A DNA stretch of 64,000 nt, taken from assembly GCF_057098645.1 (NCBI RefSeq), contig NZ_CM169472.1. The stretch is one strand, 5' to 3'. Below, in pieces: positions 15,308-34,916 of this stretch. Position 1 is the first letter of the stretch; each line of letters starts with the position of its first letter. The translations under genes were made by a program, and so were the position numbers. The notes below the pieces were generated by a model, which had not been told where the DNA came from, did not search any database, and saw only the letters and a list, made by a program, of their open reading frames with translations.

Positions 15308-15320
15308 GCTGCTGACCTCA

Positions 15321-16982: not shown

Positions 16983-17322
16983 GCTCGTCCTCTTCTTCTG
17001 TTTCCGGTGGATTTTTACGGCGGCTTATCGGGTCAAAACCGAGCAAGGAGGCCATTTTTATCATCACTCTTTCAGCGTCGGATTTTGCGCTTAATGCGGG
17101 GTTTCTGCTCTCGCCGCCCTGACTGTTAACAATGCTGAACCCGCGCGCCGCAAGGTCTGCAACGGCTTTCCGGTAAATGGAGTAGTTGACGCAATACAGT
17201 TCCAGATTGCTCCAGTCGGCGGGGGTCAGGTCTCCCCGTTCCGCAAGCTGCCGCGATTTTTCCCGCCACTGCTTCACGGCGATATCATCCAGGTAGGCGG
17301 GGGCTTTCGGTGGTCTTGCCAT
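16966..17322 (-). CDS. terS: Terminase small subunit, P27-family-like (118 aa)
   Basis: Small acidic-C-terminus protein overlapping terL start, downstream of an HNH gene. Confidence 0.75.
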   Translation of the reverse strand: MARPPKAPAYLDDIAVKQWREKSRQLAERGDLTPADWSNLELYCVNYSIYRKAVADLAARGFSIVNSQGGESRNPALSAKSDAERVMIKMASLLGFDPISRRKNPPETEEEDELDRLE

Positions 17323-17444
17323 GCTTATTTTTCGTCAGATTATTTTTCAAAAAATTCCCGTGCATAAAAATTTGAGGAGGCGTTCGGTGCCCGGCGGGGT
17401 CGGGTTTGTCCTGAAAACGCCCCCCACCCCGTCATACAGCCTCA

Positions 17445-17669
17445 TCAGCGATTGCGGAAACATTCCATAACCTCGCGGTCACGGTCGGTTAATCGCTTCG
17501 CTGTGATGCGTTCTGCGCGTCCTGACGCTTTATCTTTATGCCCTGTTTCCTGTGTCTTCCATGCGTCACGCTGCCTTATAAGTCCACGGATAAGGCGGTT
17601 TTGTTCCCGCTCATTCATCAGCGTCATACATCCAGTTATTGCGGTTAGCGGCCCGTTCTTCCTCTTCAT
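17445..17669 (-). CDS. Hypothetical basic protein (74 aa) overlapping the 3-prime end of the HNH gene
   Basis: ATG at 17669 preceded by AGGTGG Shine-Dalgarno (5-nt spacer); out of frame with HNH; start uncertain. Confidence 0.4.
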   Translation of the reverse strand: MKRKNGPLTAITGCMTLMNEREQNRLIRGLIRQRDAWKTQETGHKDKASGRAERITAKRLTDRDREVMECFRNR

Positions 17670-18051
17670 GAAATCCACCTGCGGCACGCTTGCTTTTTGT
17701 TGCCGGATCAAGCCATTTCGTTTTCTGGTTATGACACGCCTGGCACAATGGTTGATGGTTCCATTCGGGCCAGAAGAGAACATCATCACCGCCATTAATC
17801 GGGATAATGTGATCCACCACCACGGCGGGCGTATATATCCCCTTCTCAAGGCATCGCACGCATAACGGGTTTTTACTCAGATACATGGCGCGGTATTTGT
17901 CCCACTGTCTGGAGTACCCACGCGCGCGGCGGTGTCCTCGTCTGGCATCCTCTGCACGCCATGCCGCCCGCCTGTGCTCCTCACACTTGCCGGACTTCAC
18001 GCGCCTGTTACAGCCTGGTTCTGTGCATCGTCTTAATGGTTGCCACGGCAT
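17611..18051 (-). CDS. HNH endonuclease (146 aa), packaging-associated
   Basis: Cys/His-rich motifs (CxxC ... HIIPINGGDD ... CQACHNQK); located just upstream of terS as in HNH-dependent cos packaging. Confidence 0.85.
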   Translation of the reverse strand: MPWQPLRRCTEPGCNRRVKSGKCEEHRRAAWRAEDARRGHRRARGYSRQWDKYRAMYLSKNPLCVRCLEKGIYTPAVVVDHIIPINGGDDVLFWPEWNHQPLCQACHNQKTKWLDPATKSKRAAGGFHEEEERAANRNNWMYDADE

Positions 18052-18347
18052 CAGTACACCCCCACATCACGGTAAGCCGTCCAGAGCGCGCCAATCGTCA
18101 TGGGTACGCGCGTTTTTGCGTTATCCGCTACCAGCTGGCGATTCTCGTACAGGTGAGCGATAAACATCATGCAGCCAATCTTTATGGCTGGCGTGAACTC
18201 CAGCCCGTCATCAAAGCGCCTGCCTATATGTATCTGGCACGCCTCAAGCGATGCGGCAATGTATCCGCTGATTAACTGGTCTTCCTCGTCGCCATCGATG
18301 CGGCAATGGAGTTTCACTTCTTCCAGGGTGATAAGTTCTTCTGTCAT
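18051..18347 (-). CDS. Head-tail connector protein, gp6-like (98 aa)
   Basis: Size, position and sequence character of phage gp6-like connector proteins. Confidence 0.65.
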   Translation of the reverse strand: MTEELITLEEVKLHCRIDGDEEDQLISGYIAASLEACQIHIGRRFDDGLEFTPAIKIGCMMFIAHLYENRQLVADNAKTRVPMTIGALWTAYRDVGVY

Positions 18348-18682
18348 TTTTCCGCGCCCTCACGACAAAGAATTTCAAGGCGTGTCCTGGCGGCATCCGG
18401 CAGCGGCTGCCCGATGATATTCAGTACACGCCCCGCCAGCGGCCCCGTACTGACCTTTATCCGGCTGGTGGCGTTGATGTCCTTCCGGTACCGTATCCAG
18501 ATCCTTACGGTACCAATCGCCAGCTCTGCACCCGATGAAATGGCCTCCTTGCTGCTGATCATGTTCACGCTTGCCCAGAGTGTGTGACCGTCCTCCCACG
18601 TTTCGAGTATTTCGCCGGTTATATCCCTGGTCTGTTTCAGGGTCTGAATCGTTACCCTGTCACGCAGTCGCCCTATGTTCAT
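18344..18682 (-). CDS. Head-tail adaptor / head closure protein (112 aa from MNIGRL)
   Basis: MNIGRLRDRVTIQ... typical of head-tail adaptor family; starts 4 nt inside the portal 3-prime end. Confidence 0.65.
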   Translation of the reverse strand: MNIGRLRDRVTIQTLKQTRDITGEILETWEDGHTLWASVNMISSKEAISSGAELAIGTVRIWIRYRKDINATSRIKVSTGPLAGRVLNIIGQPLPDAARTRLEILCREGAEK

Positions 18683-19890
18683 TCCGGTTTTTCTCCCTCG
18701 CTGATTTTTACTTCCTGTTTCCATGCCTGGCTGAACTCATCACCACCATCACGCGGGGACAGCCCTTCACGTTCGCGGGCTTCGTTCGGGCACATAACGC
18801 CGGATTTGATGCCGCGTTCATAGGTGGCAAAGCGTTCGCCAGGTGTGGCCCGTAACAGGTCCGCGCTGTCAAACTCCACCTGATACCGGATACCAGGTAC
18901 AGGCGAGGCCACCAGCAGGGCGTTTTTTATCTGCTGCTCAAAGTTCGCCAGCCACGGGCGCATCGTCATGGTGAGAAATGCGCGGCTTGCCTCGCTGAAA
19001 TTGCTGTAGGTGCTGTTGCTGTATTCCTGCAAAAAAATCGGCGAGACGTTGAACATTCGGGCGATGTCTTCAATGGTGAAGCGACGGGAGGCCAGCCATT
19101 CAGCATCCTGATTACTCATGCCCAGCTGCTGATAGCTCATACCCCCTTCAAGGATGGGCGTTTTTCCGGCGTTTCTGGCCCCTTTGTAGCGTTCCAGTGC
19201 GGCTAATGCCTGTTTGCCCTTCACGCCGTCCAGCCATTCGCCTGACGTGATAACCCCTGCCGCCATCATGCCATCACGCATCACGCTCGCGCCGTGGCGT
19301 TGTTGGGCCAGCCCAAGCCCCAGCGATTCGCGGCAGATGGTTACAGGTGAGCGCCCCATAAAACCGTCATCCGTGGAGTAACGAAGGTGGAGAACCTCCC
19401 ACGGTAAATAGTTGCGGGTGTTTCCGGTGTAGGCGTCAGTGATGCAGTAGCGCCAGTTGTGTTCGCCTGTCTGCTCCACGTTCACCGACTGCGGCGGGTA
19501 AGGATGTAAAGCCACCGGAAAACCATCACGCCCCCACTGAATCACCGCATAAGCATTACCGTTTAACAGGCAGTGGCGGATCATCATTCGCTTAAACTGG
19601 TAGGGAGTCTGCCACGCGTTCGGGCGCTCGTTGAGGATGTGATCGACCGGATGAGAATCAAGCCACTCTCGGGCCTCCTTCCCCTTCTCATTGCGTACCA
19701 GGTACAGGTAACACGGCATGGTAGCCACCGCCTCAGAGATGACCGTGACGGCGTTCATGACGGCGGGCAGTGATTCCGCTGTCCCCGATGATACGTACTC
19801 ACCCGCCCCCGTGTTCGATGTGCCAGCCAGCGCCATAAACTCATCAAGCGTCATGCTGCGCTGCTCTTTTTTTCTTCTGAAAGGCCACAT
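18679..19890 (-). CDS. Portal protein, HK97 family (403 aa)
   Basis: Size and position between prohead protease and connector genes. Confidence 0.8.
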   Translation of the reverse strand: MWPFRRKKEQRSMTLDEFMALAGTSNTGAGEYVSSGTAESLPAVMNAVTVISEAVATMPCYLYLVRNEKGKEAREWLDSHPVDHILNERPNAWQTPYQFKRMMIRHCLLNGNAYAVIQWGRDGFPVALHPYPPQSVNVEQTGEHNWRYCITDAYTGNTRNYLPWEVLHLRYSTDDGFMGRSPVTICRESLGLGLAQQRHGASVMRDGMMAAGVITSGEWLDGVKGKQALAALERYKGARNAGKTPILEGGMSYQQLGMSNQDAEWLASRRFTIEDIARMFNVSPIFLQEYSNSTYSNFSEASRAFLTMTMRPWLANFEQQIKNALLVASPVPGIRYQVEFDSADLLRATPGERFATYERGIKSGVMCPNEAREREGLSPRDGGDEFSQAWKQEVKISEGEKPE

Positions 19891-19891
19891 A

Positions 19892-20464
19892 TCACACCCC
19901 CGCTAAATCCGCCCACCAGCGGCGATTATCCGCACGCGGCATTTTTTCGGGGTGCTGCTCATACAGGGAACGGCGGGCCAGCTCCACGCCGGAATCGGGG
20001 TAAGCCGGTACCGATGTAACGGTAATTTCGTACAGTTCCGCCACCAGCACGGTGCGCACGCATGGATCTGTTGTGGTATCCCATACATCCTTACGGGAGC
20101 GAAAGCCAAAGCTCATCCCCGAGATGTCCCCACGCTTAACCAGTTCGATAACGTCGCGCCCTGTACTGGTATCCGGTGGGGTCAGTTCAAAGCGTAACCC
20201 TGTTTCGTCCTCTTCCAGTTTCAGCGTGCCGGAACGGGTGCGCCCCAGTAACATGCTGTGGTCATGCTCATACAGGCCGCGAACGTCATTACCCGCCGCA
20301 AGCCATTCAGTAAACGCTCCCCGCTGGAATTTTTCGTAAAACTCACCCCATAGCAGATCAGAAAGGTTATCCCAGCGAACAACGTAGCCTGTAAGCGTGT
20401 TGCTGGCGCTGGTGGTGATTTCCGATGACCGGATTTCCATACTCTTCATAATTTTTTCACCCAT
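19892..20464 (-). CDS. Prohead maturation protease, HK97 family (190 aa)
   Basis: Size and position between major capsid and portal genes. Confidence 0.8.
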   Translation of the reverse strand: MGEKIMKSMEIRSSEITTSASNTLTGYVVRWDNLSDLLWGEFYEKFQRGAFTEWLAAGNDVRGLYEHDHSMLLGRTRSGTLKLEEDETGLRFELTPPDTSTGRDVIELVKRGDISGMSFGFRSRKDVWDTTTDPCVRTVLVAELYEITVTSVPAYPDSGVELARRSLYEQHPEKMPRADNRRWWADLAGV

Positions 20465-20503
20465 AAAACACTAAAGGGGCTTTTAAGCCCCTTCTGTATG
20501 CTG

Positions 20504-21661
20504 TTAATCGTCGTCTTCCGGCAGTTCCAGAATCTTGATCGCGTTCGAATCCACCACGCCACCGCCTAAATATTTTTGCGTGAAAATTTTGATGAATCCT
20601 GGTTCTGTCAGGTTGTCCGGTCTGGTGCGAACACCTGTTTCGTGATCAACAATGTAGTAACCGCGTTTGAAGTCACCCAGGGCAATAACGTTATCAGGCA
20701 TAAACTCCAGATATTCGACCGGAAGGCCCAGCAACGTATCAGGATCACCCGCCTGTAAACGGTCGCGCCAGATATAATCACCGTTCGCGTTCTTCACCTT
20801 CTGAAGTTTTGCCGCCGTCGTGGAGTTAACCACCCAGACCGCGTTTTTGCGGTATTTTTTACGTAATGCAAATTTCAGGTCGATCAGCGGGTCCGCAGAT
20901 GTCCACGCCAGAGATTCGGAAGGTTTAATTACCTGCAACGTACCAAAATCACGCTCTTTGTCGTTCTTCTCTGCACGGGGTACGGATAAAAAACCTTTTG
21001 CTTTTTTGTCACCGTCGCCCACAACCAGATCGCTTTCTTCGGTTTCCGTGAAGGTGTCGCCAATCTCACCCGTCAGCCATGAAAGGATGTCCACATCGGA
21101 AAAATCCACGATTTCCTGTGTGGTGCGCGGGTACGCATAGACCGGATACAGCTTGATGCTCACCTCGTTAATCTGCGGGGTGCTGGTCTGTTCGCGTGCC
21201 TTACCCTCTTCACCGTGGTTAACGGTCGCACCGCCAGCGGAAACAAGCTGCTTAAACTCGTTGCTGCTGATTTTCTTCACGGTACAGATGCGGCGCATGG
21301 TGGATTCATCCGCCAGCATTCGCATGATTTCGGTGTTCAGTTCAGGGATAACGGTATAACCACCATCAGCGGGAACGCCTGTACTTAATGCGCGGGTTTC
21401 ACCTGTCAGAATGTAGTTGCGGAGTTCTGCGGGGTCAGTGGTCTGACTGCTTTTACCTGGCTTGCTGCGCTCTTCGTCTGCAATGGCTTCAAGGCGGGAA
21501 ATGTCTTTATCGAGGGATTCAGCTTTAGCGCGTAATTCGTCAAATTTTGCGCCCTCTGCATCGTTAAGGCTGCGGTTTTCTTTTTCCGCGTTCTCCAGCA
21601 TGTCGCGCATCTGATTTTTAATGGCGGTTTTCTGCTGGCGTAATTCGATTATTCTCGGCAT
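20504..21661 (-). CDS. Major capsid protein, HK97 fold, with N-terminal coiled-coil scaffolding (delta) domain
   Basis: Start taken at MPRIIELRQQ (ATG 21661) because the upstream codons of the 21706 ORF form a terminator hairpin; coiled-coil N-terminus then MCP-like body. Confidence 0.85.
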   Translation of the reverse strand: MPRIIELRQQKTAIKNQMRDMLENAEKENRSLNDAEGAKFDELRAKAESLDKDISRLEAIADEERSKPGKSSQTTDPAELRNYILTGETRALSTGVPADGGYTVIPELNTEIMRMLADESTMRRICTVKKISSNEFKQLVSAGGATVNHGEEGKAREQTSTPQINEVSIKLYPVYAYPRTTQEIVDFSDVDILSWLTGEIGDTFTETEESDLVVGDGDKKAKGFLSVPRAEKNDKERDFGTLQVIKPSESLAWTSADPLIDLKFALRKKYRKNAVWVVNSTTAAKLQKVKNANGDYIWRDRLQAGDPDTLLGLPVEYLEFMPDNVIALGDFKRGYYIVDHETGVRTRPDNLTEPGFIKIFTQKYLGGGVVDSNAIKILELPEDDD

Positions 21662-21699
21662 AAAAAAAAGTCCTGGGGTTAAGTAAGGAACTCCAGGAC
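21662..21699 (-). terminator. Intrinsic terminator immediately upstream of the capsid start codon
   Basis: Minus-strand RNA: GUCCUGG(AGUU)...(AACC)CCAGGAC stem followed by U8 and then AUG. Confidence 0.55.
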
Positions 21700-21751
21700 G
21701 CGGCAAACACTCAACCGTTTTTCATAAGGAAATCAGTAATCGCACCGATCG

Positions 21752-21801
21752 TTTTCCCGCCTGGTAATGAATATTGGCGAGCACATTAACAGGCGGGAAA
21801 A
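21752..21801 (-). promoter_or_regulatory. Long perfect hairpin in the capsid-operon leader (12-bp stem TTTTCCCGCCTG/CAGGCGGGAAAA, 26-nt loop)
   Basis: Inverted repeat read directly from the sequence. Confidence 0.45.
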
Positions 21802-21876
21802 TGGCCCCAGCGTCCTGGCACCACGGGCGAGAATAATCATGATTCAGTTCGGGTAAAATATGCCGATCCACTCAGT

Positions 21877-21906
21877 GAACAACGTGGAACAACCACGAAC
21901 AAATAA
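21877..21906 (+). promoter_or_regulatory. Third copy of the AACAACGTGGAACAA-N4-GAACAA motif, in the capsid-operon leader
   Basis: Same motif as at both island ends (14481-14508, 32483-32510). Confidence 0.35.
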
Positions 21907-21920
21907 TTTACAAAACATGA

Positions 21921-21943
21921 CAAAAAGCCGGATTGCTCCGGCT
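21921..21943 (-). terminator. Intrinsic terminator after the PerC-like gene
   Basis: Minus-strand AGCCGGA-GCAA-TCCGGCU hairpin followed by UUUUU. Confidence 0.5.
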
Positions 21944-21949
21944 GTGTGA

Positions 21950-22222
21950 TTATCTGTCCTGGTAATTTCGCCATATTTCATCACCAGCACCATCCATACC
22001 CATTTCGGCATAAGTGCGATCGACCGCCTTTTTCAGGTCTCCGTAATTATCCGGCGGCTCCGGTGGCCTCTGTGCCTTCCTGGAACATTCCAGCCGTCGC
22101 ATCGTGATATGATGCCGTTCCTTGTCTGTCTCCACCAGCTGCATGACTTCACCCCATCGCGCCGCCGCCCTCCGGTAAAAGCCTTTCGCCTCCAGTTCCT
22201 CCGCTATGCGGTCATGTACCAT
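21950..22222 (-). CDS. Small regulator, possibly PerC-family (90 aa from MVHDRIAEEL)
   Basis: ATG 22222 with GGGGGTGA Shine-Dalgarno, 11 nt after the ssb stop; FYRRAAARW motif reminiscent of PerC-like activators; family assignment is tentative. Confidence 0.4.
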   Translation of the reverse strand: MVHDRIAEELEAKGFYRRAAARWGEVMQLVETDKERHHITMRRLECSRKAQRPPEPPDNYGDLKKAVDRTYAEMGMDGAGDEIWRNYQDR

Positions 22223-22232
22223 CGTCACCCCC

Positions 22233-22643
22233 TCAGAACGAAATATCATCACCGTAAGGGTCATCGCCTCCCGCTGGTGGCTGATTACCCTGTGTGCCTG
22301 TGGTTTTGCGTCTGTTCCCGCCTGGACGTGCCGCGCGGGCACTGATTACGCTGTCTGCGATAACCTGCCAGCCCTGCCGCGTTTCTCCGTTCTGTCCGGT
22401 CCACTGGCTGACCTGCATCGTGCCGGATACGCTGGCAACATCGCCTTTTTGATGTTTAGCCAGGAAGTCGGCCTGTTTGCCAAATGCGATGACCGATAAC
22501 CATAACGTCGCCTGTCCGTCCTGTGCCTGGCTGCATGGCAAAGATACCGCCATACGCGCCAGCGTCATCGGTGTGCCCTTGCTGGTCTGTTTTACCTGCG
22601 GGTCGTCCACCAGCCGCCCGTAAGCGGCTATCTGTGCCGTCAT
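22233..22643 (-). CDS. ssb: Single-stranded DNA-binding protein (136 aa)
   Basis: OB-fold region plus Gly/Pro-rich tail ending with acidic DDISF-like C-terminus. Confidence 0.75.
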   Translation of the reverse strand: MTAQIAAYGRLVDDPQVKQTSKGTPMTLARMAVSLPCSQAQDGQATLWLSVIAFGKQADFLAKHQKGDVASVSGTMQVSQWTGQNGETRQGWQVIADSVISARAARPGGNRRKTTGTQGNQPPAGGDDPYGDDISF

Positions 22644-22891
22644 AATTCCACCTCTCCGGTTTTAACGTTGATGGTTGTTACCTGTTCCGCTTCGGCAATC
22701 TCCCGTTCTGTCAGCGTGGCAAAGTTTGCCGCCGCCGTGGTCATGAATGCGCTTATCAGGTCGGGATGTTCCTTCGCGTATCCTTCCCGCGTGTGGCGGT
22801 CTATCGTTCTGATTGCCACCTTTAAGGTGTGCTCAGTCATGTCTAACGCTTTATATTTTGGCTCTGTTCTGTCTCTGCGTTTTTGGGTCAT
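22640..22891 (-). CDS. Hypothetical protein (83 aa from MTQKRRDRTEP)
   Basis: ORF between ori and ssb; GAGAGG Shine-Dalgarno before ATG 22891; start uncertain. Confidence 0.45.
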   Translation of the reverse strand: MTQKRRDRTEPKYKALDMTEHTLKVAIRTIDRHTREGYAKEHPDLISAFMTTAAANFATLTEREIAEAEQVTTINVKTGEVEL

Positions 22892-22903
22892 TTCTCGCAA
22901 CCT

Positions 22904-23093
22904 CTCACTTTTTCGCCTCACTTTTTCAAGCGTCTCACTTCGTCGCAGTTGGGATTTTCGGTTTTTCTATGTGTGTGTTTCATAAGTATTTTTTTACCCC
23001 TCACTTTTGAGGATGTATACAGGTCGAAAAGTGAGGGAGAGCGGGCTAATTTTGGCCCTCTTTCTATCCCCCTCGCTTTTGCTCCTCACTTTT
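22904..23093. repeat. Iteron array, candidate island replication origin
   Basis: Six direct copies of (C)CTCACTTTT and one inverted copy (AAAAGTGAGG) immediately 3-prime of the rep gene, the last overlapping the rep stop codon. Confidence 0.6.
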
Positions 23094-24492
23094 ATAGCGG
23101 CGCTACATCATCCCCATCGATACGAATAACCCCATCTTTTTCCAGCTTGTACAGCCAGCGCCGGAAGTTTTTCATTTCATACCCCAGCTTTTTCATGTCA
23201 TCACGTAACAGCGGGATCGTGCACTTGTCGCCGTTCTGTGTGCGTGAACGGATGCACCCCCATAGCGCGGTATGGTTTTCCGTCTTGTTCCCTGCCTCCT
23301 CGATGCGCTCCAGTTCAACAGGAGGGCGCGGATCATCCACCACCACCAGCGACGTGATTAATTCACCGTCAGCGTCGGTAAAAAGCTCCACCACGCGTAA
23401 GTCATATGCGGCTTCTTTGAGTTCCTCCGCGTCCTTCATTTTGGTGCATGAGATAACCAGCGCTTCGCTTCCTGCGTCCTCCCTGCGTATCCGGTATTCA
23501 GCATCCAGCGAAGCACGAAATGCACTGGAACCGCGCGCGCCTTTCGTCTCATCCTTGCCGGAATGGTGAACCACCAGCACCGTGGCCCCTGTGCGTCGTT
23601 TCAGTTCGTCACAACCACGGATAAACGCCCCCATATCACGGGAATCATTTTCATCATTCCCACCAAAGCAACGCGCCAGCGTATCCAGAATAATCATGCG
23701 TACAGGTTTACCCGTTTCCCGCTCCACCTGACGGGCAGCGATAACCATTTCATCAACATCAAGCGGGGCAGCCGGAAAGATGGGGCGGTTTACCAGATAC
23801 AGATTTTTCACCTGCTCATCGTGCACAACCTCCCAGGCTTTTACACGACGCGGAACACCTATACCGCCTTCACCAACCACATAGAGAACCGCACCATGTG
23901 CAACCCTGCGGCCTCCCCACTGGCGACCAGTGGCAACATGGCACGCCCACGATCCGGCAAGGAATGATTTATAGGACCCGCTAGCCCCGTATATGCTGCA
24001 TAGCGATACCGCCGGAATAATCCCCTTAACCACGTAATCCAGTTGCGTGTCGTATCCGGTAGATCCAACGCTCATCGGTAGCGTGGTTTTTCGCTGGTGG
24101 TTTTTTTCTTCCGCCGGCTCTTTCCCGCGCACCCGTTCCAGGTATTCGCGCCAGTTCTCCCGCATATGGTTGTGCATCCCTTCGGGGTAATAATTCGCAT
24201 CAGTTACACCCGCCGCCGCCAGCTTGTGCGCAATGGCATTAATATTTGATGGCCTGATGTGGCCTGCCTTGTACAGCCGGACACAATAGCGCCCCTCGTC
24301 GATGATTCTCAGGTCTGCCAGTTCATCCAGTTGATCATCAGCCAGCACAACGGGAGGCACATTATCGCCAGCCAGTCGCCCGTCCTGTTCCTGCCACTGT
24401 TTCGCATGTGCCCAGGCATCACTACCCGCAAAAATAATGACTTCGGTCATCTTGTCGTAAGGCTGTTTTTTTAAGTTCGGTGCGCTTTTCAT
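23092..24492 (-). CDS. Replication initiation protein (primase/helicase-like RecA-fold NTPase, 466 aa)
   Basis: Deviant Walker A (GASGSYKS) and Walker B (MIILDTLARCF) motifs; position between small-gene operon and ori as in PICI pri-rep. Confidence 0.7.
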   Translation of the reverse strand: MKSAPNLKKQPYDKMTEVIIFAGSDAWAHAKQWQEQDGRLAGDNVPPVVLADDQLDELADLRIIDEGRYCVRLYKAGHIRPSNINAIAHKLAAAGVTDANYYPEGMHNHMRENWREYLERVRGKEPAEEKNHQRKTTLPMSVGSTGYDTQLDYVVKGIIPAVSLCSIYGASGSYKSFLAGSWACHVATGRQWGGRRVAHGAVLYVVGEGGIGVPRRVKAWEVVHDEQVKNLYLVNRPIFPAAPLDVDEMVIAARQVERETGKPVRMIILDTLARCFGGNDENDSRDMGAFIRGCDELKRRTGATVLVVHHSGKDETKGARGSSAFRASLDAEYRIRREDAGSEALVISCTKMKDAEELKEAAYDLRVVELFTDADGELITSLVVVDDPRPPVELERIEEAGNKTENHTALWGCIRSRTQNGDKCTIPLLRDDMKKLGYEMKNFRRWLYKLEKDGVIRIDGDDVAPL

Positions 24493-24614
24493 TTCTTGCC
24501 CCTGAATCCGTTAACTGCGTATTCCGCTCTATTCGATCACGGATTGGCATCGAAGTCCGATCAGCGATTCGCATCCATTCGATCAACCGGGAACTTAACT
24601 TTTTCTACCGCTTT

Positions 24615-25370
24615 TTAACGCGTTTTTTCGCTGCTTTCCACTACCGGGGGATTTTTCCTCAGTGACTCTCCCTGAAGGACCACTCGGTGTGAGTTATGTA
24701 CCAGTCTGTCCAGGATGGCATCTGCTGTTGTTGGGTTCTCCATCAGACCATGCCATTTATCTACCGGGAACTGGCTTACCACTATCGTGCTGCTTTGTCC
24801 GTAACGATCCTCTATGAGCTCCAGAAGGTCATTACACTGGGCGTTACTTAACTGTTCCAGCCCCAGATCGTCCAGGATTAGAACCTGTATTTTTTGCAAC
24901 TGTTTCAGATATTTCAGCCAGCTGCCATCAACACGTCCCTGAGCCAGTTGTTCCAGTAATCGCCCGGTTCTACAGTACCGGACGCTGTGTTTCTGTCGAC
25001 ATGCCTGTTCGCCCAGCGCATTGGCTATCCAGCTCTTGCCACATCCTGTCGGACCGGTTATCAGCAGGTTTTTCCTGTGGGTTATGTAGTGGCCGTTCAG
25101 CAGTTCTCTCATCTGTTCAGCCCGCAGACCTCTTGAGGCCGGATAGCGCAGCCCTTCCGGTGTTGCCTGGTATTTCAGGCCGGCATTTTTTCTCAACCGT
25201 GCCACACGGCTGTTTTCCCTGCTCAGAAGCTCGTCATCAACCAGCAGCGTCAGCCTTTCCTCGAACGACAGTTCGTCGTAGGTCTGAGGCGTTTCCCGCT
25301 GCCGTATCAGGCTCCCGGCCATCGCCGGGAGTTTCAGTTGGGTCAGTTTGTTTAACAGGTTATCACTCAT
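24615..25370 (-). CDS. istB: IS21-family helper ATPase IstB
   Basis: Walker A GPTGCGKS and typical IstB architecture; start taken at MSDNLLNKL. Confidence 0.85.
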   Translation of the reverse strand: MSDNLLNKLTQLKLPAMAGSLIRQRETPQTYDELSFEERLTLLVDDELLSRENSRVARLRKNAGLKYQATPEGLRYPASRGLRAEQMRELLNGHYITHRKNLLITGPTGCGKSWIANALGEQACRQKHSVRYCRTGRLLEQLAQGRVDGSWLKYLKQLQKIQVLILDDLGLEQLSNAQCNDLLELIEDRYGQSSTIVVSQFPVDKWHGLMENPTTADAILDRLVHNSHRVVLQGESLRKNPPVVESSEKTR

Positions 25371-25386
25371 ACTGTTGTTCCTTCTG

Positions 25387-26952
25387 TCAGTGGTAGTAGC
25401 CCGGACCACGCAGGTTTTCATGCTCTGAAGCATATGCCGGATGTTGTTCGCCCTGGCGGGATAATGGAAGCTCCAGGTTCTCCCGATGGTGACGCAGCAG
25501 ATTGTCGATAAAGCGTCTGTCAGGGGCGTTATAGTGCAGGGCAACGTAACAGGCCTTTTCCAGCCGTTCCGGGCCGTATTTTTTCTGAAGTGCCAGCAGC
25601 CCCAGAACTGCACGATAAGCCAGTTCCGGATGGGGTTTTGCCTTCAGCATGGATTCAACCACCCGGCCTGTGGACGGGCCCGTACGTTTTCCCTGCTCGA
25701 TCAGGCGTTCCGGTGTCCATGTCCCGTGCTGCCGGTGGCGCTCTGGCATGTGAAGCGGATTGGTTGTGTGTTTATATTCATGTGTGCTGCGCGGATGTTG
25801 CGCCACACACTGCCCCTTGTGCCAGAGCTGTACCACCGACTGCCCCGCCTTCAGTGACAGACGCTGACCGACCAGTTCGTGTGGAACGGAGTACCAGTGA
25901 CGGGCATATTCAACGTGGTAGTCAGGGCCAACCTTCACAGCTTTGTATTCCGTGTATTCATAAGGTGCCAGAGGCAGCGGAGAGAGTGCTGGCGCATCCA
26001 GTATGCGGAAGCGTTCTGCACGGGTTTGATTGCCGTACCCCTTCATTGGCCGGTTATTCATGTCTGTCAGTAACTCCCTAAGGCGCGCATTCAGCGCCCT
26101 GAGCGTGTGGAAGGTTTCATTACGGATGCGGGCAAGAAGCCATCGTTCAACGATGAGGACGCCGTTTTCTGCTTTTGGTTTATCTTTAGGTTTGCGTGGT
26201 CGGGCCGGGATGATAACCGTGCCATAGTGCTCAGCCAGTGCCTGATAACTGTCGTTGATGACAGGCTCATATCGATCGGCCTTTTTCACTGCGCTTCTGA
26301 GGTTATCGGGGATGAGCAGCTTCGGTACGCCGCCCAGGAAGGTCAGGCAACGGCTGTGGGCATTTAACCATGACATCATGTCCTGACCTTCGCACGCTTC
26401 AACGTAGGTATAGTTGGACGCCCCCATTACGGCCACGAAGATTGCCACGCGGCGTATCTCACCGGTGTCCGGATTAATAACAGGAACCGTAGGACCACAG
26501 AAGTCGATAAAAAGCTTTTCGCCGGCACGATGCTCCTGGCGCATGGAGAGACGTCGCGTTTTTTTCCACTCCCGGTAGCAACGGCAGAAGTGCGAGTATC
26601 CCATCGCTTTGTTACCCGCCTGTGCCTTGTATTCCATCCACAACAGTTGCCGCGTCACACCTGGTTTTCTCATTTCCGTATCGAAGTACAACATGTCAGG
26701 CATTACAAGCTCTGATGCAAAGGTGTCTTTGGGCGGAAAAATGAGTTTCTCCAGCGTGTCATGGGATATATCAGCAGGTAATGGCCATGACAGAGAAGAG
26801 GCTTTGAAGCGGGCAAGAACCTCAAAAACGGTTGAGGCGCTGATGTGTAACGTCAGTCCGATACAACGGTTAGTCAGCTTCTTGTCGAACTTGAGCTGAA
26901 GGATCTTAAAACAGGTTTCCATAGTGCTCCTGGATTTTCTCTTTCTGGACAT
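25387..26952 (-). CDS. istA: IS21-family transposase IstA
   Basis: N-terminal HTH then DDE integrase core; start ambiguous (26922, 26952 or 27033). Confidence 0.8.
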   Translation of the reverse strand: MSRKRKSRSTMETCFKILQLKFDKKLTNRCIGLTLHISASTVFEVLARFKASSLSWPLPADISHDTLEKLIFPPKDTFASELVMPDMLYFDTEMRKPGVTRQLLWMEYKAQAGNKAMGYSHFCRCYREWKKTRRLSMRQEHRAGEKLFIDFCGPTVPVINPDTGEIRRVAIFVAVMGASNYTYVEACEGQDMMSWLNAHSRCLTFLGGVPKLLIPDNLRSAVKKADRYEPVINDSYQALAEHYGTVIIPARPRKPKDKPKAENGVLIVERWLLARIRNETFHTLRALNARLRELLTDMNNRPMKGYGNQTRAERFRILDAPALSPLPLAPYEYTEYKAVKVGPDYHVEYARHWYSVPHELVGQRLSLKAGQSVVQLWHKGQCVAQHPRSTHEYKHTTNPLHMPERHRQHGTWTPERLIEQGKRTGPSTGRVVESMLKAKPHPELAYRAVLGLLALQKKYGPERLEKACYVALHYNAPDRRFIDNLLRHHRENLELPLSRQGEQHPAYASEHENLRGPGYYH

Positions 26953-27137
26953 TGACGTCTCCACTGGTTTAAACACGGCAATGGAGACTGTGGTGAAAAG
27001 AGTTAATTCCCGGAGTGACTGGCAGGATGCCAATCAATGATCGGAAGCATGCCAAATCGTGATCGATTGTGATGCCAAACTGTGATCGGAGATGGATGCC
27101 AAATCATGATCGATTCGAATGCCAAACTGCGATCGAT

Positions 27138-27434
27138 TCAGATGCCATTTTGCACGTTAACCATGGTTTTCAGCTTCTGGATGTTTGCCCGTGCCCTGGC
27201 GTTGCTGGTGGGCACGTTATGCGGCGCGGTCTGTACCAGAGAAAAATCACGCCGGAACTGATAAACAGGCATCACGCAATCATATTCGTAACCTTCACGG
27301 CGGTAAGTTACGCACCGTCCCGCCACGCCCTTAATCATTACCGTGCCGCCGTACTGGTCGCGGTAAATATCACCGCGCGTAAATTTAGGGTGAGTGTTGC
27401 CACTGGCAGTTAAGCCAGAATATTTAAGTTTCAT
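27138..27434 (-). CDS. Hypothetical protein (98 aa); last 6 codons replaced by IS21 end sequence
   Basis: Before the IS21 insertion this gene would end ...KLKTMVNGFRGKK with its TGA overlapping the rep ATG (24490-24492). Confidence 0.5.
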   Translation of the reverse strand: MKLKYSGLTASGNTHPKFTRGDIYRDQYGGTVMIKGVAGRCVTYRREGYEYDCVMPVYQFRRDFSLVQTAPHNVPTSNARARANIQKLKTMVNVQNGI

Positions 27435-27439
27435 TATTT

Positions 27440-27673
27440 TTATTCTCCGGTGTGCTGTTCTTTATATCTGTCGTGCAATAGATCTATTTTTTGCAGTTCC
27501 ATTATTACAGGCTCAAGTAGCGTTATTAATGCCGTGGCAATTCTTGATTTTTGTTTGTCGCGTTCATTATCTCCAAGCGTGTCAAGCCATATGCGCAATA
27601 TTTCCAGCATGTTTTCACTGTGAGAAAGTGCAAGAAATGCGCGGTCTATTGTTTCAAGGTAAATATCACGCAT
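27440..27673 (-). CDS. Hypothetical protein (77 aa)
   Basis: Coupled ORF (5-bp gap to next gene, 1-nt gap after previous stop). Confidence 0.5.
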   Translation of the reverse strand: MRDIYLETIDRAFLALSHSENMLEILRIWLDTLGDNERDKQKSRIATALITLLEPVIMELQKIDLLHDRYKEQHTGE

Positions 27674-27674
27674 A

Positions 27675-27896
27675 TTAATCCCCGTCCGTCGTTTTTCTTA
27701 AAACAACTTCTGTCACGAAATCAGCATAGTTAGCGGCAATATCAAGAATATTTAGCCCTGTATCCCTGTGCTCATCAGTGCAAAGAAAGAAAAAAGCCAC
27801 CAGCATAATTTCAGATATTGACGAAAGCGCATCAGCCGCATCATCAGGAACGCCGGAAAATTCCTGTTTCAGGGAATTAAAACGATCATCACGCAT
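27675..27896 (-). CDS. Hypothetical protein (73 aa)
   Basis: First ORF of the three-gene set upstream of rep. Confidence 0.45.
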   Translation of the reverse strand: MRDDRFNSLKQEFSGVPDDAADALSSISEIMLVAFFFLCTDEHRDTGLNILDIAANYADFVTEVVLRKTTDGD

Positions 27897-27929
27897 AACC
27901 CCGTTACTTTATTCGTACCCCTTATAATG

Positions 27930-28129
27930 GGGTGTTAGCCAGCCAGACCCGGCATGATTACTGCCCCCAGTCGTCCATGATCCGGGGGGTGATGTCACCG
28001 GGTCTGGTGGGGCGCTGGTAACCGCTAATAGGGGTCAGGTCAGGCACTTTTGCCGGGACCGTCTGTAACGTGGATGCCGGTACCTGCTCCCCGTGGTTAT
28101 CTGGTTAACCCATATACAAGGGAGACAGA
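27930..28129 (+). ncRNA. Candidate IS110-type bridge (guide) RNA in the 5-prime non-coding end
   Basis: Structured GC-rich non-coding flank upstream of the recombinase, where IS110-group elements encode their bridge RNA; not verified by folding. Confidence 0.25.
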
Positions 28130-29326
28130 ATGACCGAATCCAGCGATTACGAATCCGTCCAGGTCTTTATCGGCGTTGATGTCGGTAAAGATACGCATCA
28201 CGCTGTAGCCATTAATCGTTCAGGTAAACGCCTGTTCGATAAAGCATTACCCAACGACGAAAACAAACTCAGGTCGCTAATATCTGACCTGAAACAACAT
28301 GGTCAGATACTGCTGGTTGTTGATCAGCCAGCTACCATCGGTGCGTTACCTGTCGCCGTTGCCCGCTCAGAAGGAGTCCTTGTCGGATACCTCCCTGGAC
28401 TGGCCATGCGCCGCATAGCCGACTTACACGCCGGTGAAGCTAAAACTGATGCTCGTGACGCTGCCATCATTGCCGAAGCTGCCCGTACCCTGCCTCACGC
28501 GCTACGCACGCTGAAACTGGCTGACGAGCAAATCGCCGAACTCTCCATGCTCTGCGGCTTCGATGATGATCTTGCCGCACAGACAACGCAGGCCAGCAAC
28601 CGTATCCGCGGCCTTCTGACCCAGATACATCCGGCACTGGAGCGCGTTCTCGGTCCGAGACTTGATCACCCGGCGGTACTCGATCTTCTCCAGCGATATC
28701 CCTCACCAGAAAAACTCGCTTCGCTGGGTGAGAAGAAGCTGGCAGCCCAGCTCTGCAAACTTGCGCCTCGTCTGGGTAAACGCCTTGCAGCAGACATAGC
28801 TCAGGCACTGGCCGAACAAACCGTCGTCGTTCCCGGCACGAATGCCGCTGCCGTAGTACTGCCACGTCTGGCACTCCAGCTCATCACGCTGCGTAAGCAA
28901 AGAGACGAGGTGGTGCTTGAGGTAGAACAGCGAGTTCTTGCTCACCCTCTTTACCCGGTCCTGACCAGTATGCCCGGAGTCGGTGTCAGGACCGCAGCCA
29001 GACTCCTCACCGAGGTCGCCTGCCGCGCCTTCGCCTCTGCCGCACATCTCGCTGCTTATGCTGGCCTTGCGCCGGTAACTCGGCGATCCGGCTCGTCAAT
29101 ACGCGGTGAGCATCCCTCGCGACGGGGTAATAAAGCTCTCAAACGGGCGTTGTTCCTGTCGGCCTTCGCCGCGCTCAGGGATCCGCTCTCCAGGGCTTAC
29201 TACACCCGCAAAATGAGTCAGGGAAAACGACACAATCAGGCGCTTATCGCCCTGGCGAGACGACGCTGCGACGTTCTGTTCGCCATGATGCGCGACGGGA
29301 CTTTTTATACCCCGCAGGCGTCATAA
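28130..29326 (+). CDS. IS110-family transposase/recombinase (398 aa)
   Basis: N-terminal IGVDVGKDTHHAVAIN (RuvC-like DEDD) motif and C-terminal serine-containing domain. Confidence 0.85.
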   Translation: MTESSDYESVQVFIGVDVGKDTHHAVAINRSGKRLFDKALPNDENKLRSLISDLKQHGQILLVVDQPATIGALPVAVARSEGVLVGYLPGLAMRRIADLHAGEAKTDARDAAIIAEAARTLPHALRTLKLADEQIAELSMLCGFDDDLAAQTTQASNRIRGLLTQIHPALERVLGPRLDHPAVLDLLQRYPSPEKLASLGEKKLAAQLCKLAPRLGKRLAADIAQALAEQTVVVPGTNAAAVVLPRLALQLITLRKQRDEVVLEVEQRVLAHPLYPVLTSMPGVGVRTAARLLTEVACRAFASAAHLAAYAGLAPVTRRSGSSIRGEHPSRRGNKALKRALFLSAFAALRDPLSRAYYTRKMSQGKRHNQALIALARRRCDVLFAMMRDGTFYTPQAS

Positions 29327-29339
29327 CATGCTTGACAAC

Positions 29340-29561
29340 TTAATAGGGGCACCCCCCATTTTCACAATCAGCAATAAGAATATTTTTAGCGTCATTCAGC
29401 GACCGCGTGGCGGTGTATCGGATACATTCCAGGGCGAACTGTGTCCGGTCTTTCTGTTCTTCTCCCTGCGCAAGCTCTGCAGTGCATTCAATATCGATAA
29501 GCGCGTGCATCAGCGTAGTGAGCGCGGCGGCTGCTGCGTCCGGTGTGGTTTTATTGCACAT
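29340..29561 (-). CDS. Hypothetical Cys-containing protein (73 aa, MCNKTTPDAAAAALTTLMHALIDIECTAEL...)
   Basis: AGGAGG Shine-Dalgarno 8 nt upstream; ATG overlaps the end of the preceding gene by 11 bp; stop is 14 nt from the IS110 transposase stop. Confidence 0.5.
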   Translation of the reverse strand: MCNKTTPDAAAAALTTLMHALIDIECTAELAQGEEQKDRTQFALECIRYTATRSLNDAKNILIADCENGGCPY

Positions 29562-29751
29562 GGCACACCTCCTGACGAATACGGGCGGCGAATACAGCAA
29601 CACAACCGGACGGGCAACGGCTACGCGCTTCGCGTTCCGTCCAGGCGGTTACGTGGATGATTTGAGATTCTCCGGCACTCAGTGCCAGAAAACGCCACAC
29701 AAAGGCCGTTTGTGTGTGTACAAGGTGTGGTATATGATTTACAGCAACCAT
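29551..29751 (-). CDS. Hypothetical Cys/His-rich protein (66 aa, MVAVNHIPHLVHTQTAFVWRF...CPSGC...CHVQ)
   Basis: AGGAG Shine-Dalgarno 5 nt upstream of ATG; first gene of the leftward small-gene operon. Confidence 0.55.
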   Translation of the reverse strand: MVAVNHIPHLVHTQTAFVWRFLALSAGESQIIHVTAWTEREARSRCPSGCVAVFAARIRQEVCHVQ

Positions 29752-29780
29752 AACGGCTCCTAGTTTACGTTGTTGGTTAG

Positions 29781-29825
29781 AAGCCCTGCGAGTGGTAACG
29801 ACACTTGCGGGGCTTTGTCTTTTCA
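29781..29825 (+). terminator. Strong hairpin with U-rich tail, best formed on plus-strand RNA
   Basis: 14-bp stem AAGCCCUGCGAGUG/CACUUGCGGGGCUU with two G-U pairs on the plus strand (C-A mismatches on the minus strand), followed by UGUCUUUUC. Confidence 0.45.
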
Positions 29826-29845
29826 TCGATTACCTTGATAAAGGT

Positions 29846-29924
29846 GTCAGCCACTATATTAGTAACGGGTGTCAGCCACGTCAATAGTGTTTTTCCGTTT
29901 TCTTGTGTGTATACTGTCAGCCAC
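29846..29924 (+). promoter_or_regulatory. Three direct repeats TGTCAGCCAC (29846, 29870, 29915) overlapping the promoter of the RHH gene
   Basis: Exact 10-bp repeats; the third overlaps a TATACT -10-like hexamer about 30 bp upstream of the RHH start. Confidence 0.5.
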
Positions 29925-29945
29925 CTAATAACGAGGAAATCAGAT

Positions 29946-30125
29946 ATGGCAACAAAAGCAGTTAATGCAAAATCCAAAAAGCTTGAGGCTCGAGTACCAC
30001 ACGCAATAGCTGATGCTGTAGAAAATTTAAAGGAAGATGGCGAAAGTACAGGGCAATTTATCGTTTCGGCACTTGAAGGCGAGATCAAACGCCGCCAGCG
30101 CCGCAAGGCCAAAGAATCAGAATAA
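29946..30125 (+). CDS. Ribbon-helix-helix (CopG/Arc-like) DNA-binding protein (59 aa)
   Basis: MATKAVNAKSKKLEARVPHAIADAVENLKEDGESTGQFIVSALEGEIKRRQ: beta-strand then two helices pattern; plus strand, divergent from the small-gene operon. Confidence 0.6.
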   Translation: MATKAVNAKSKKLEARVPHAIADAVENLKEDGESTGQFIVSALEGEIKRRQRRKAKESE

Positions 30126-30167
30126 TCACTATCAGCGCCGTGGTGTGAGGTATTACGGCGCATTGCT

Positions 30168-30356
30168 ATGCAGGACAACACAATGACCGATAAAGAATTG
30201 ACCAAAACATTATCACCGGCACGGAAAAGACGGCGCAGAAAGATAGAGCATGAATCAGAAAGATTCGCGCCATGTGCTTTTGCCCTTGAGCAATTCCTTA
30301 AAGAATACAGGGAAAAGCGCTCATTGCAGGTATGGCAACGAACTGAACCAGACTGA
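30168..30356 (+). CDS. Hypothetical highly basic protein (57-62 aa, contains RKRRRRK)
   Basis: ORF directly downstream of the RHH gene and upstream of an intrinsic terminator; weak ribosome-binding site. Confidence 0.4.
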   Translation: MQDNTMTDKELTKTLSPARKRRRRKIEHESERFAPCAFALEQFLKEYREKRSLQVWQRTEPD

Positions 30357-30451
30357 TTGCATTGCCCACCAGCCTGATAGCGGCTATCATCCCCGTGCTT
30401 ATGTTTGGGATCACACACACAAACGGCGCAGCGGGTTATCTGTTCAGAAAG

Positions 30452-30479
30452 GCGGCTCCATTTCGGGGCCGCTTTTTTT
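30452..30479 (+). terminator. Intrinsic terminator of the plus-strand RHH cassette
   Basis: GCGGCUCC-AUUUC-GGGGCCGC hairpin followed by UUUUUUU. Confidence 0.6.
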
Positions 30480-30625
30480 ATGCCTGAAAAACCCCAATTT
30501 TGTGGTTTTCCAGTCTCACCAGGGCGAACGAATCCCCGCCCACGTTCTGGCGTATATTCAATCTTCATGGTTATAGCTCTGTGTTCAGATGATTGATGTG
30601 TGGCGGCTGTGTGCCGCCAGCGTGA

Positions 30626-30814
30626 TTAATGAACTGCCTTGCAGCTATCCTTCCAGGCCAGAACCTCGGATAAAGACCAGCCAACGGAACGACCGCCAAG
30701 TTTACGACGTGATGGGAATTGTCCGGCCTTTTCCAGGCGGTAGCGACACGTACGGCTAAGGCCGGTTAGTTTTTCGCATTCTTTTTCACGTATAAACCGA
30801 TCAGTGCTTAACAC
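30626..30814 (-). CDS. alpA: AlpA-family phage regulatory protein (62 aa)
   Basis: LTGLSRTCRYRLEKAGQFPSRRKLGGRSVGWSLSEVLAW matches the AlpA/Xis-like HTH family pattern. Confidence 0.8.
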   Translation of the reverse strand: MLSTDRFIREKECEKLTGLSRTCRYRLEKAGQFPSRRKLGGRSVGWSLSEVLAWKDSCKAVH

Positions 30815-31188
30815 TATTGCCCCCTTTCGTTTCTTAAAGAGTTATTTCGTGTTCTATTGCGTTGAGATGTGTCTGATTGTGTCAGGATGATTCAGAGTTG
30901 GCAAATGTTGAGGCCGTATGGTTTACAGAAAGAGGAATAATCAGGATAAAATCATTTAAATTCATGTTAATACAAAGACATAAAATATTGTTTCATGCCT
31001 TTTTTCTCGCTATTTAAAGAGTGATTCGCTAGTGTATAAAAAACCAGTGACACATTAAAAATCAGCTACTTATAAATCTGTACACTTTTTCGCCTCTTGT
31101 TCGTAGTTGTTCCGCATTGTTGCTCATTGTTGCACGTTGTATCTGTTCGCATATCCAGTATGCGCATACTGAAAAAATACGAAAAAAA

Positions 31189-32406
31189 TTATTTTCTTCT
31201 GGCTACTGGTAGCGTGGTTACGTTTTCATGTGTTCCCGCCAGTATCCCTAACCGCTCCATCCACATATCCAGCGCATTGCGTTTAGCATCCAGATAACGG
31301 GAATGATTATAAACTCGCTGCATTCCTGGCATCTGGTGGCCTGTAAGCTGCTCCACGACATGCGGATCAACGCCTAAATCGTTCAGCATGGTTGTAAAGG
31401 TGCGCCGGATGTCATGCAGTGACCAGTGAGGATGATTAAGCCTCCTGTGCGCTAATCTTCCATACTGCGATACGCTGGCCTCCTGTTTCACTTCCCCCAG
31501 CAATAAGCCCGTGTGCCTGTTCTGCTCCACCAGCTGCGTGACGAACGGCAGGATCGCTTCCGGTATGGGCCGGAATATTGCGACCTTCGTTTTGCTGTGC
31601 TCCTTCGGAACGGTCCATAGCATTTCCGTAAAATCCCACTCCCCGATCTCCGATAGCCTCAGTTCTACCGTCCTGGCTCCGAAGACAATCAGGAGGCGGA
31701 TTAACGCGACGTAGTAAGGGGAAAATATTTTTTTGTCCAGTGCCTGCAATAATTCGCCAAGTTCTTTGTTACTTAAGACACGTTCGCTTATATCCGGTTT
31801 TTTCCCAACGTCCGCCACGTTCAGATCGTCCAGAACGTTGCTGATTGCATAGCGCCGCCTACGGCAGAACTTAAGCGCCTGTTTGCACGCCTGTAGCACG
31901 AATCCGGCAGTAACAGGCGTTCGCTTTGCCACCTGGTCAAAACAGGCCAGCCAGTGCCGTAGCTCGCATTTATCCAGCGGCATAGCACCAATCTGCTGTA
32001 TTACGTGATTATTAAGTCGCCTTTTCAGGGCGATATAATCCACGCGCTTTTCCTTTACGTAATACTCAAGCCAGTAGGTGAGCGCATCGCCAACCGTTAC
32101 GGGCTTTAACGCTTCCTGTACGGTGTAATTCATCTCATGACGTGGATTTTTCCCCTCAGCCAGCCATGTGCGACACTGTGCGGCTTTTTCCCTAGCTGCT
32201 TTCAGGCTCAGATCAGGATAACTTCCCAGCTTAATGCGTTCGGGTCGTGTCTCCCTTCCCGTTCCGGCCCTGTATGTGAAATACCAGGTCAATTTCCCTG
32301 ATGTTAAATATTTCACGCTCAGGTTTCCGCCATCACTATAAAACGTGTTTTTCTCCGCTGGCTTACCATGAAGTTTCCTTAGCAAGGTATCGCTCAGTTT
32401 GTTCAT
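31189..32406 (-). CDS. int: Tyrosine integrase, P4-like (about 405 aa)
   Basis: Arm-binding N-terminal domain plus catalytic R..HxxR..Y signature (HDIRRTF...RYLD); start at ATG 32406 (GTG 32418 also possible). Confidence 0.9.
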   Translation of the reverse strand: MNKLSDTLLRKLHGKPAEKNTFYSDGGNLSVKYLTSGKLTWYFTYRAGTGRETRPERIKLGSYPDLSLKAAREKAAQCRTWLAEGKNPRHEMNYTVQEALKPVTVGDALTYWLEYYVKEKRVDYIALKRRLNNHVIQQIGAMPLDKCELRHWLACFDQVAKRTPVTAGFVLQACKQALKFCRRRRYAISNVLDDLNVADVGKKPDISERVLSNKELGELLQALDKKIFSPYYVALIRLLIVFGARTVELRLSEIGEWDFTEMLWTVPKEHSKTKVAIFRPIPEAILPFVTQLVEQNRHTGLLLGEVKQEASVSQYGRLAHRRLNHPHWSLHDIRRTFTTMLNDLGVDPHVVEQLTGHQMPGMQRVYNHSRYLDAKRNALDMWMERLGILAGTHENVTTLPVARRK

Positions 32407-32444
32407 TGCTCTGCTCACGTTTTACCCCCTCTTTACGAAAAAGT

Positions 32445-32510
32445 GACTACACCAGTGACTACACCGATCGTTGCACAAAGGGCTACAACGTGAAACAAGC
32501 TGGAACAAGG
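32445..32510 (+). promoter_or_regulatory. Right-arm repeat cluster: GACTACACC x2 then ACAACGTGAAACAAGCTGGAACAAGG
   Basis: Between the int start and the chromosomal junction; mirrors the left-arm cluster. Confidence 0.4.
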
Positions 32511-32593
32511 AAAATCACAAATCTGTTGATAATCAAAAACATAATGCACAGCCTGAAACATTATGAAACAGCAAAAAACACTAAATGATAAAA

Positions 32594-33500
32594 TGCTGTT
32601 ATTCTTAACCCGCTGGTGCAACACATGGTCCGCTGGCGAGTGCCGCGTGTACTGGCGGTGTCGATTTTGATGACCATCATCGTGATGGCTATGGTGTTGC
32701 TGTTAGCTTATCTGGGTTCCGCGCTCAACGAGTTGACGCGGACGTTACCGCAATATCGCAACTCTATTATGACGCCGCTGCAAGCTCTTGAGCCGTTGTT
32801 GCAACGCGTAGGGATTGACGTCTCAGTTGACCAGCTGGCGCATTACATTGATCCGAACGCGGCGATGACGTTGCTCACCAACTTATTGACGCAGTTATCT
32901 AATGCCATGTCATCAATATTTTTATTGCTGCTGACGGTGCTGTTTATGCTGCTCGAAGTGCCACAATTGCCCGGAAAATTTCAGCAAATGATGGCGCGTC
33001 CGGTTGAAGGGATGGCGGCGATTCAGCGTGCGATTGACAGTGTGTCTCATTATCTGGTGCTGAAAACAGCCATCAGCATCATCACCGGCCTGGTCGCATG
33101 GGCGATGCTCGCCGCCCTCGATGTTCGCTTCGCTTTTGTCTGGGGATTGCTGGCCTTTGCGCTTAATTACATCCCTAATATTGGTTCAGTTCTCGCGGCA
33201 ATCCCCCCTATCGCTCAGGTACTGGTGTTTAATGGCTTCTACGAAGCGTTGCTGGTGCTGGCGGGATATCTGCTGATTAATCTGGTCTTCGGCAATATTC
33301 TGGAGCCGCGCATCATGGGACGTGGGCTGGGGCTTTCGACATTGGTGGTATTTTTGTCGTTGATTTTTTGGGGATGGTTGTTAGGACCGGTGGGTATGCT
33401 GCTTTCCGTGCCGTTGACAATTATTGTCAAAATTGCGCTTGAACAAACAGCGGGAGGTCAAAGCATCGCCGTTCTGTTAAGCGATCTCAATAAAGAGTGA
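32594..33500 (+). pseudogene. tqsA: tqsA (ydgG) AI-2 exporter, 5-prime truncated at the island junction (lacks about 45 codons)
   Basis: K-12-like TqsA sequence begins abruptly at ...[16 protein letters not shown]; an in-frame TAA sits at 32589-32591 just inside the island. Confidence 0.8.

Positions 33501-33524: not shown

Positions 33525-34916
<1,392 letters not shown>

Follow-up and report, generated by a model that had tools for sequence, protein, structure and literature searches.

A 3′ remnant of tqsA at the end of an apparently hybrid satellite island with mismatched attachment cores in Escherichia coli

In the window, the 64-kb stretch of DNA analysed here, the gene for the AI-2 exporter TqsA is represented by a 3′ fragment (32594..33500, + strand) that begins exactly where a satellite-type island ends. 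Very probably this fragment is the attR-side remnant of tqsA, a silent pseudogene whose split has been locked by an inversion between two satellites. The splitting of tqsA by a satellite is a routine event that has already been annotated and published. The only less routine elements are the hybrid island with its mismatched att ends and the inversion that it implies, which is based on one visible endpoint.

The extent of the fragment is defined by alignment to an intact K-12-type locus. Homology to K-12 tqsA sets in at 32594, corresponding to nucleotide 129 of 1035 and to the third base of codon 43, and continues unbroken through the tqsA stop codon (33498-33500), pntB and pntA with 98.7% identity. 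The fragment retains the final base of codon 43 and then codons 44-344 with the stop. Residues 44-344 of K-12 TqsA are matched with 100% identity over 32595-33497 (tblastn), and the codons differ from those of K-12 by 15 synonymous and no non-synonymous changes, with no internal stop. The Pfam family AI-2E_transport (PF01594) is recognised with 237.8 bits against a gathering cutoff of 34.3, the match covering model positions 40-326 of 327. On the right side of the fragment the pntB and pntA context of tqsA is conserved, with pntB (33525..34913, - strand) as the adjoining gene. The fragment lacks the promoter, the ribosome-binding site and the start codon of the native gene, and the N-terminal domain is incomplete in the window, codons 1-43 being missing. 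Neither the first 128 nt of tqsA nor the intergenic region between mdtJ and tqsA occurs anywhere in the 64-kb window, as judged by alignment and by blastn-short and tblastn searches, which gave only chance matches of 10-14 nt, none of them significant.

An earlier sequence-only reading had proposed that an island truncates tqsA at 32594, and this is confirmed by homology that starts exactly there and by foreign, integrase-bearing DNA immediately 5′. The same reading held that the first ~45 codons had been removed. N-terminal codons are indeed cut off, but the exact number is 43, and they have been displaced by site-specific integration and not deleted, because ordinary carriers of the island keep the 5′ 144 nt of tqsA at its other end. 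There the piece is a 144-nt 5′ tqsA pseudogene beside mdtJ, as seen in all three carriers for which the whole island was fetched.

Comparison of attL, attR and attB places a 9-bp core, TGCTGTTAT, at the attR junction (32594..32602, + strand), where it covers tqsA codons 43-46. The core is common to attL and attR of the tqsA island of strain JNE141411 (L004; L numbers denote comparison loci), to attL of L006 and to attB of K-12. Eight further carriers have the junction position, the core and the tqsA side unchanged, with a 3-base difference in the island-side flank in two of the eight. In canonical carriers, recombination inside the shared core would regenerate the K-12 sequence exactly. Of 5426 complete E. 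coli genomes, 246 have an identical junction between int and the tqsA fragment (tqsA′), so that ~4.5% of them are without an intact tqsA for this reason. Carriers among those examined include O157:H7, O145, O43 and uropathogenic isolates. In every one of the 11 carriers examined, the 906-nt 3′ piece is labelled a pseudogene by RefSeq/PGAP ("incomplete; missing N-terminus").

The site is also established in the literature. Bobay et al. found tqsA among the core genes disrupted by prophage integration (PMC3603311). Mageeney et al. reported tqsA islands of 11-16 kb among integrative elements that interrupt genes, including the TIGER islands Eco282.16.tqsA, Eco33.11.tqsA and Eco557.15.tqsA, and counted tqsA among their candidates for "regulated gene integrity"; an 11-kb phoQ island appears in the same list of elements (PMC7192596). 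The window island resembles the E. coli tqsA-site elements in its target gene, its 11-16 kb size class, the integrase adjoining the 3′ fragment and the inactivation of the gene near its 5′ end. It differs from them in that its other end lies at phoQ, with a different att core, and in carrying two IS insertions.

The island occupies 14368..32593 (- strand) and is identified by Pfam matches and near-identical annotated loci as a capsid-forming PICI-type satellite that is a mosaic of phoQ-site type on the left and tqsA-site type on the right. It measures 18.2 kb, or ~13.9 kb after subtraction of an IS21 element (2.64 kb) and an IS110 element (1.66 kb). At its right end lies a tyrosine integrase of the tqsA-site type with 409 amino acids (31189..32418, - strand; Pfam PF13356 Arm-DNA-bind_3 and PF00589 Phage_integrase). 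The integrase region shares 99-100% identity with L001 and L006, both of them tqsA-site islands, and ~84-94% with islands at the phoQ/roxA site. An AlpA-family regulator follows (30626..30814, - strand; PF05930, 61.8 bits). Annotated islands match the packaging module with 98-100% identity. On the - strand the island encodes TerL (15321-16982), TerS (16966-17322), an HNH protein (17611-18051), the portal (18679-19890), a prohead protease (19892-20464), an HK97-type major capsid protein (20504-21706) and a RepA helicase (23092-24492). TerL, the capsid protein and RepA (AAA_25) are assigned by Pfam together with near-identical annotated loci, and the remaining four take their names from such loci. 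Further genes recognised in these ways encode an Icd-like protein, DUF4222, SSB, PerC, and head closure and connector proteins. The annotations of near-identical islands name neither tail nor lysis genes.

Two insertion sequences are found in or near the replication module. The IS21-family element with istA and istB (24514..27155, - strand; Pfam rve/Mu-transpos_C_2 and IstB_IS21) lies within the module and is missing from L003-L006. The IS110-family element (27902..29559, + strand; Pfam DEDD_Tnp_IS110 and Transposase_20) lies in or near it and is missing from related islands.

Capsid-forming PICIs (cf-PICIs) are phage satellites that assemble small capsids of their own and take only tails from a phage, and the family uses six attB sites in E. 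coli (10.1101/2022.09.08.507074). Like the prototype EcCIEDL933, the window island combines int, alpA, an Icd-like gene, a primase or RepA module and PerC with a full HK97-type head and packaging module. The integrase is at one end with the AlpA-type regulator nearby, in the order seen in L003, L004 and L006. Without its IS elements the island is ~14 kb long, within the ~10-15 kb size criterion for cf-PICIs, and no tail or lysis genes are recognised. In contrast to cf-PICIs, it has no matching att direct repeats at its ends and carries the IS21 and IS110 insertions. As far as its genes indicate, the island matches the description of a cf-PICI-type satellite. It is probably immobile, because its att ends are mismatched and because of the two insertions.

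From the start of int to the core, the right arm (32419..32593) is a 175-bp AT-rich segment that contains two GACTACACC repeats at 32443-32470 as well as the int promoter region. Pairs of (G/A)ACTACACC repeats with the same orientation lie close to the two ends of the island, at 14443-14470 and 32443-32470, and similar paired motifs are seen in tqsA-type and phoQ/roxA-type islands alike. Judged by sequence, the arm repeats near the island ends are probably arm-type binding sites of the integrase. The right arm recurs with at least 95% identity in 263 genomes, and a variant with 90-95% identity is found in 522 further genomes, including many O157:H7. This variant borders roxA in the two loci examined. 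It may be the arm of the phoQ/roxA-site islands, but the int-arm region of the two roxA-site loci is only ~85-88% identical. The satellite family is present in ~15% of complete E. coli genomes, a share that follows from the occurrence of the arm variant in 522 genomes beyond those with the tqsA-type arm.

The two ends of the window island (14358-32602) carry different cores, AAATATGTCC of the phoQ/roxA type on the left and TGCTGTTAT of the tqsA type on the right. The left core, (AA)ATATGTCC (14358..14367, + strand), directly follows the phoQ stop codon and is identical to attL of L005, the phoQ/roxA-site island of JNE141411; the 10-mer also borders roxA at attR of L005. By locus comparison, the left chromosomal flank of the island is phoQ (12899..14359, + strand), with phoP and purB before it. 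Because this left flank is phoQ, the tqsA 5′ piece is missing from the window.

A junction between phoQ and TerL of the same island family is present in O157:H7 genomes. Sister islands occupy the phoQ/roxA site in at least 178 genomes, including O157:H7, and some genomes have both islands, for example JNE141411, RM10809-3 and "strain 10". In JNE141411 the tqsA island (L004) and the phoQ/roxA island (L005) lie ~505 kb apart and are inverted relative to each other. Many proteins of these two islands have identical accession numbers, which suggests gene conversion, or a recent duplication to the second site with exchange of the integrase module.

The interior of the window island is a mosaic of the two types. 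In a sliding-window comparison, phoQ-site islands match 14.2-16.6 kb with 99-100% identity, and the tqsA-site island of strain 14EC001 does so over 17.8-24.5 kb and 29.4-32.6 kb. At 160 informative sites the same pattern is seen: over 15023-16614 the phoQ-site type is present at 63 of 64 sites, and over 18111-21919 the informative SNPs are mostly of the 14EC001 tqsA-site type. The switch falls at ~16.6-18.1 kb, with a mixed zone between. The linkage of phoQ, island and tqsA′ was found in none of the 5426 complete E. coli genomes. The island thus appears to be a hybrid produced by recombination of two sister satellites, which would imply an inversion of ~0.5 Mb around the terminus, or a misassembly.

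The history that best accommodates these observations begins with the integration of a PICI-type satellite through its tyrosine integrase at the 9-bp core, splitting tqsA. Of the two pieces, the 5′ one retains the promoter, and the 3′ one, 301 codons long, is without a promoter, a ribosome-binding site and a start codon. This second piece is best taken as a silent pseudogene, for which we infer neither expression nor function. Its pristine state would reflect an insertion that is recent on the evolutionary scale, or excision that was possible until recently, and not selection on a shortened protein. Homologous recombination with an inverted sister island at the phoQ/roxA site would most likely then have flipped the intervening ~0.5 Mb. 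The gene order predicted to result is phoQ (+), the island from TerL (-) to int (-), the tqsA 3′ piece (+) and pntB (-), and this is the order in the window. The other endpoint of the putative inversion would lie outside the window; the tqsA 5′ piece is expected ~0.5 Mb away, beside a reciprocal hybrid next to roxA. The inversion would have locked the tqsA split in this genome. The arrangement is comparable to E. coli inversions between homologous prophages, in which two homologous elements, inverted and flanking the terminus region, yield hybrids with swapped flanks. It differs in that the repeats are phage satellites and not lambdoid prophages, and in that one endpoint is visible.

The consequences of the split for the protein can be read from the structure of TqsA (YdgG), a pentameric exporter of the AI-2E family determined by cryo-EM (PDB 7NB6; PMC9475539). 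Helix H1 (Thr7-Phe29) of the five protomers is entwined around the fivefold axis as the main cytoplasmic contact of the pentamer, and Met19 acts there as a hydrophobic plug. H2 (Ala31-Trp57) is a long horizontal membrane-embedded helix, and the predicted, docked AI-2 cavity (HP1, H5 and H6) lies in the C-terminal domain (PMC9475539). Relative to this protein, residues 44-344 and the pntBA synteny are kept in the window, whereas residues 1-43, the promoter and the start codon are gone. The lost part had been described as the first transmembrane segment; the structure instead identifies it as H1 and the first half of H2. In-frame restart codons are present as had been claimed, GTG at 32616 (Val51) and ATG at 32625 (Met54) (32616..32627, + strand), and the remaining reading frame is open. 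Translation from residue 51 or 54 would give a protein without H1 and nearly all of H2 that retains the C-terminal domain with the AI-2 site. Stable assembly of such a protein is unlikely on structural grounds, and so is a functional shortened exporter.

Sampled fragments from 11 other carriers and the window allow the state of tqsA′ to be compared. It is open in 11 of these 12, and the sole clear sign of decay is the nonsense mutation S298* in UPEC-455U/190220 (L009). The few amino-acid changes among the 11 sampled carriers may be lineage polymorphisms. Taken together the fragments are compatible with recent or repeated insertion and give no positive sign of selection on a truncated product. 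As a counterpoint to the pseudogene reading, purifying selection would also explain the lack of non-synonymous changes and the 11 open fragments.

Expression from the junction was assessed with several scans. A consensus scan for sigma-70 promoters gave no site in 32200-33700, where 1.6 are expected, and two terminator-like sites equal the number expected by chance. A permissive scan identified a candidate weak outward promoter with the extended -10-like motif TGaTAAAAT (32586..32594, + strand). The adjoining island genes int and alpA are on the strand opposite to tqsA′. Transcription from the island, as had been suggested for a shortened product, is therefore not supported: int and alpA point the other way, the consensus scan finds no promoter, and there is only the weak -10-like motif. 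A fusion with an N-terminus supplied by the island is excluded by in-frame TGA (32586-88) and TAA (32589-91) codons before the junction, and the out-of-frame ATG at 32593 would give a short peptide only. PGAP calls a 60-residue "hypothetical protein" (WP_001332680.1; 32406-32588, + strand) in many carriers. Considered as a source of read-through transcription, this ORF overlaps the beginning of int and the repeat-rich att arm, stops 6 nt short of the tqsA junction in the frame of tqsA′, and is probably spurious. An Rfam scan of the whole window gave no matches.

Against this background it is very unlikely that a promoter created at the junction drives a shortened TqsA from Val51 or Met54 with residual or altered function. 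The ORF is open and its protein is identical to that of K-12, the TGaTAAAAT motif lies exactly at the junction, a weak SD-like GGTG is located 6 nt before ATG 32625, and the predicted AI-2 cavity is in the retained domain. These features, of which the motif and the GGTG may allow some expression, are set against the lack of a consensus promoter, a best -35 match of 3/6, and anti-SD pairing of +1.5 kcal/mol for the GTG and -2.8 kcal/mol for the ATG compared with -5.7 kcal/mol for the native tqsA start. The loss of the H1 pentamer contact and of nearly all of H2, the S298* mutation in one carrier and the pseudogene annotation in every carrier examined also speak against it. Equally hard to sustain for this genome, and judged highly improbable, is a reversible switch of the "regulated gene integrity" kind, in which excision of the satellite precisely restores tqsA and the fragment is kept as a half-gene. 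The shared 9-bp core of canonical attL and attR, which could rebuild the K-12 sequence, the naming of tqsA as a candidate (PMC7192596), the mostly undecayed fragments across diverse lineages and an element that interrupts and inactivates the coding sequence would all fit such a switch. A single excision cannot rebuild tqsA here, however, because the end cores AAATATGTCC and TGCTGTTAT differ and the 5′ piece is absent; moreover, the IS21 and IS110 elements are inserted in or near the replication module, and recent insertion likewise predicts intact fragments. A combination of these ideas, in which tqsA is a satellite on/off site for AI-2 export, frozen in the off state by a terminus-spanning inversion while a junction promoter may drive a headless TqsA that keeps the substrate-binding domain and modulates quorum signalling, is the least probable of all.

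A different kind of explanation, unlikely but of greater weight than these, is that separate phoQ/roxA and tqsA islands were misjoined during assembly. In this case tqsA would still be split, and its 5′ piece would sit where the tqsA island really ends on the left. The putative inversion may be an assembly error across two near-identical repeats of ~10 kb because the linkage of phoQ, island and tqsA′ is unmatched in the 5426 complete genomes. Sister islands in one genome can share ~7 kb at very high identity, enough to mislead assemblers, and the zone of the type switch falls in the most conserved part, the packaging module. On the other hand, the mosaic transition at 16.6-18.1 kb is gradual, as for recombination or gene conversion, and nothing in the window suggests a collapse. 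Inverted prophage-like repeats that recombine are also a well-known source of real inversions in E. coli, for example in O157:H7. The preferred reading remains that of a silent attR-side remnant locked in place by inversion between satellites.

Phenotypes ascribed to tqsA, in AI-2 export and in biofilms, should not be assumed for carrier strains. As to the earlier suggestion that AI-2 export is lost or altered, loss of export cannot be safely inferred from the loss of tqsA alone because E. coli has three TqsA paralogues, YhhT, YdiK and PerM. The hybrid with its mismatched ends, implying an inversion of ~0.5 Mb around the terminus and a tqsA split that would be irreversible, is of moderate interest for studies of genome structure and calls for caution with island-mapping tools that rely on matching att repeats.

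Elsewhere in the window, two IS5 copies (226-1421 and 50750-51945) are 99.9% identical and in opposite orientation. Each carries GGAAGGTGCGAA repeats at its termini and is associated with a target duplication, CTAA. As comparison with L003 and L001 shows, the left copy sits within ariR (ymgB), the right one within uidC.
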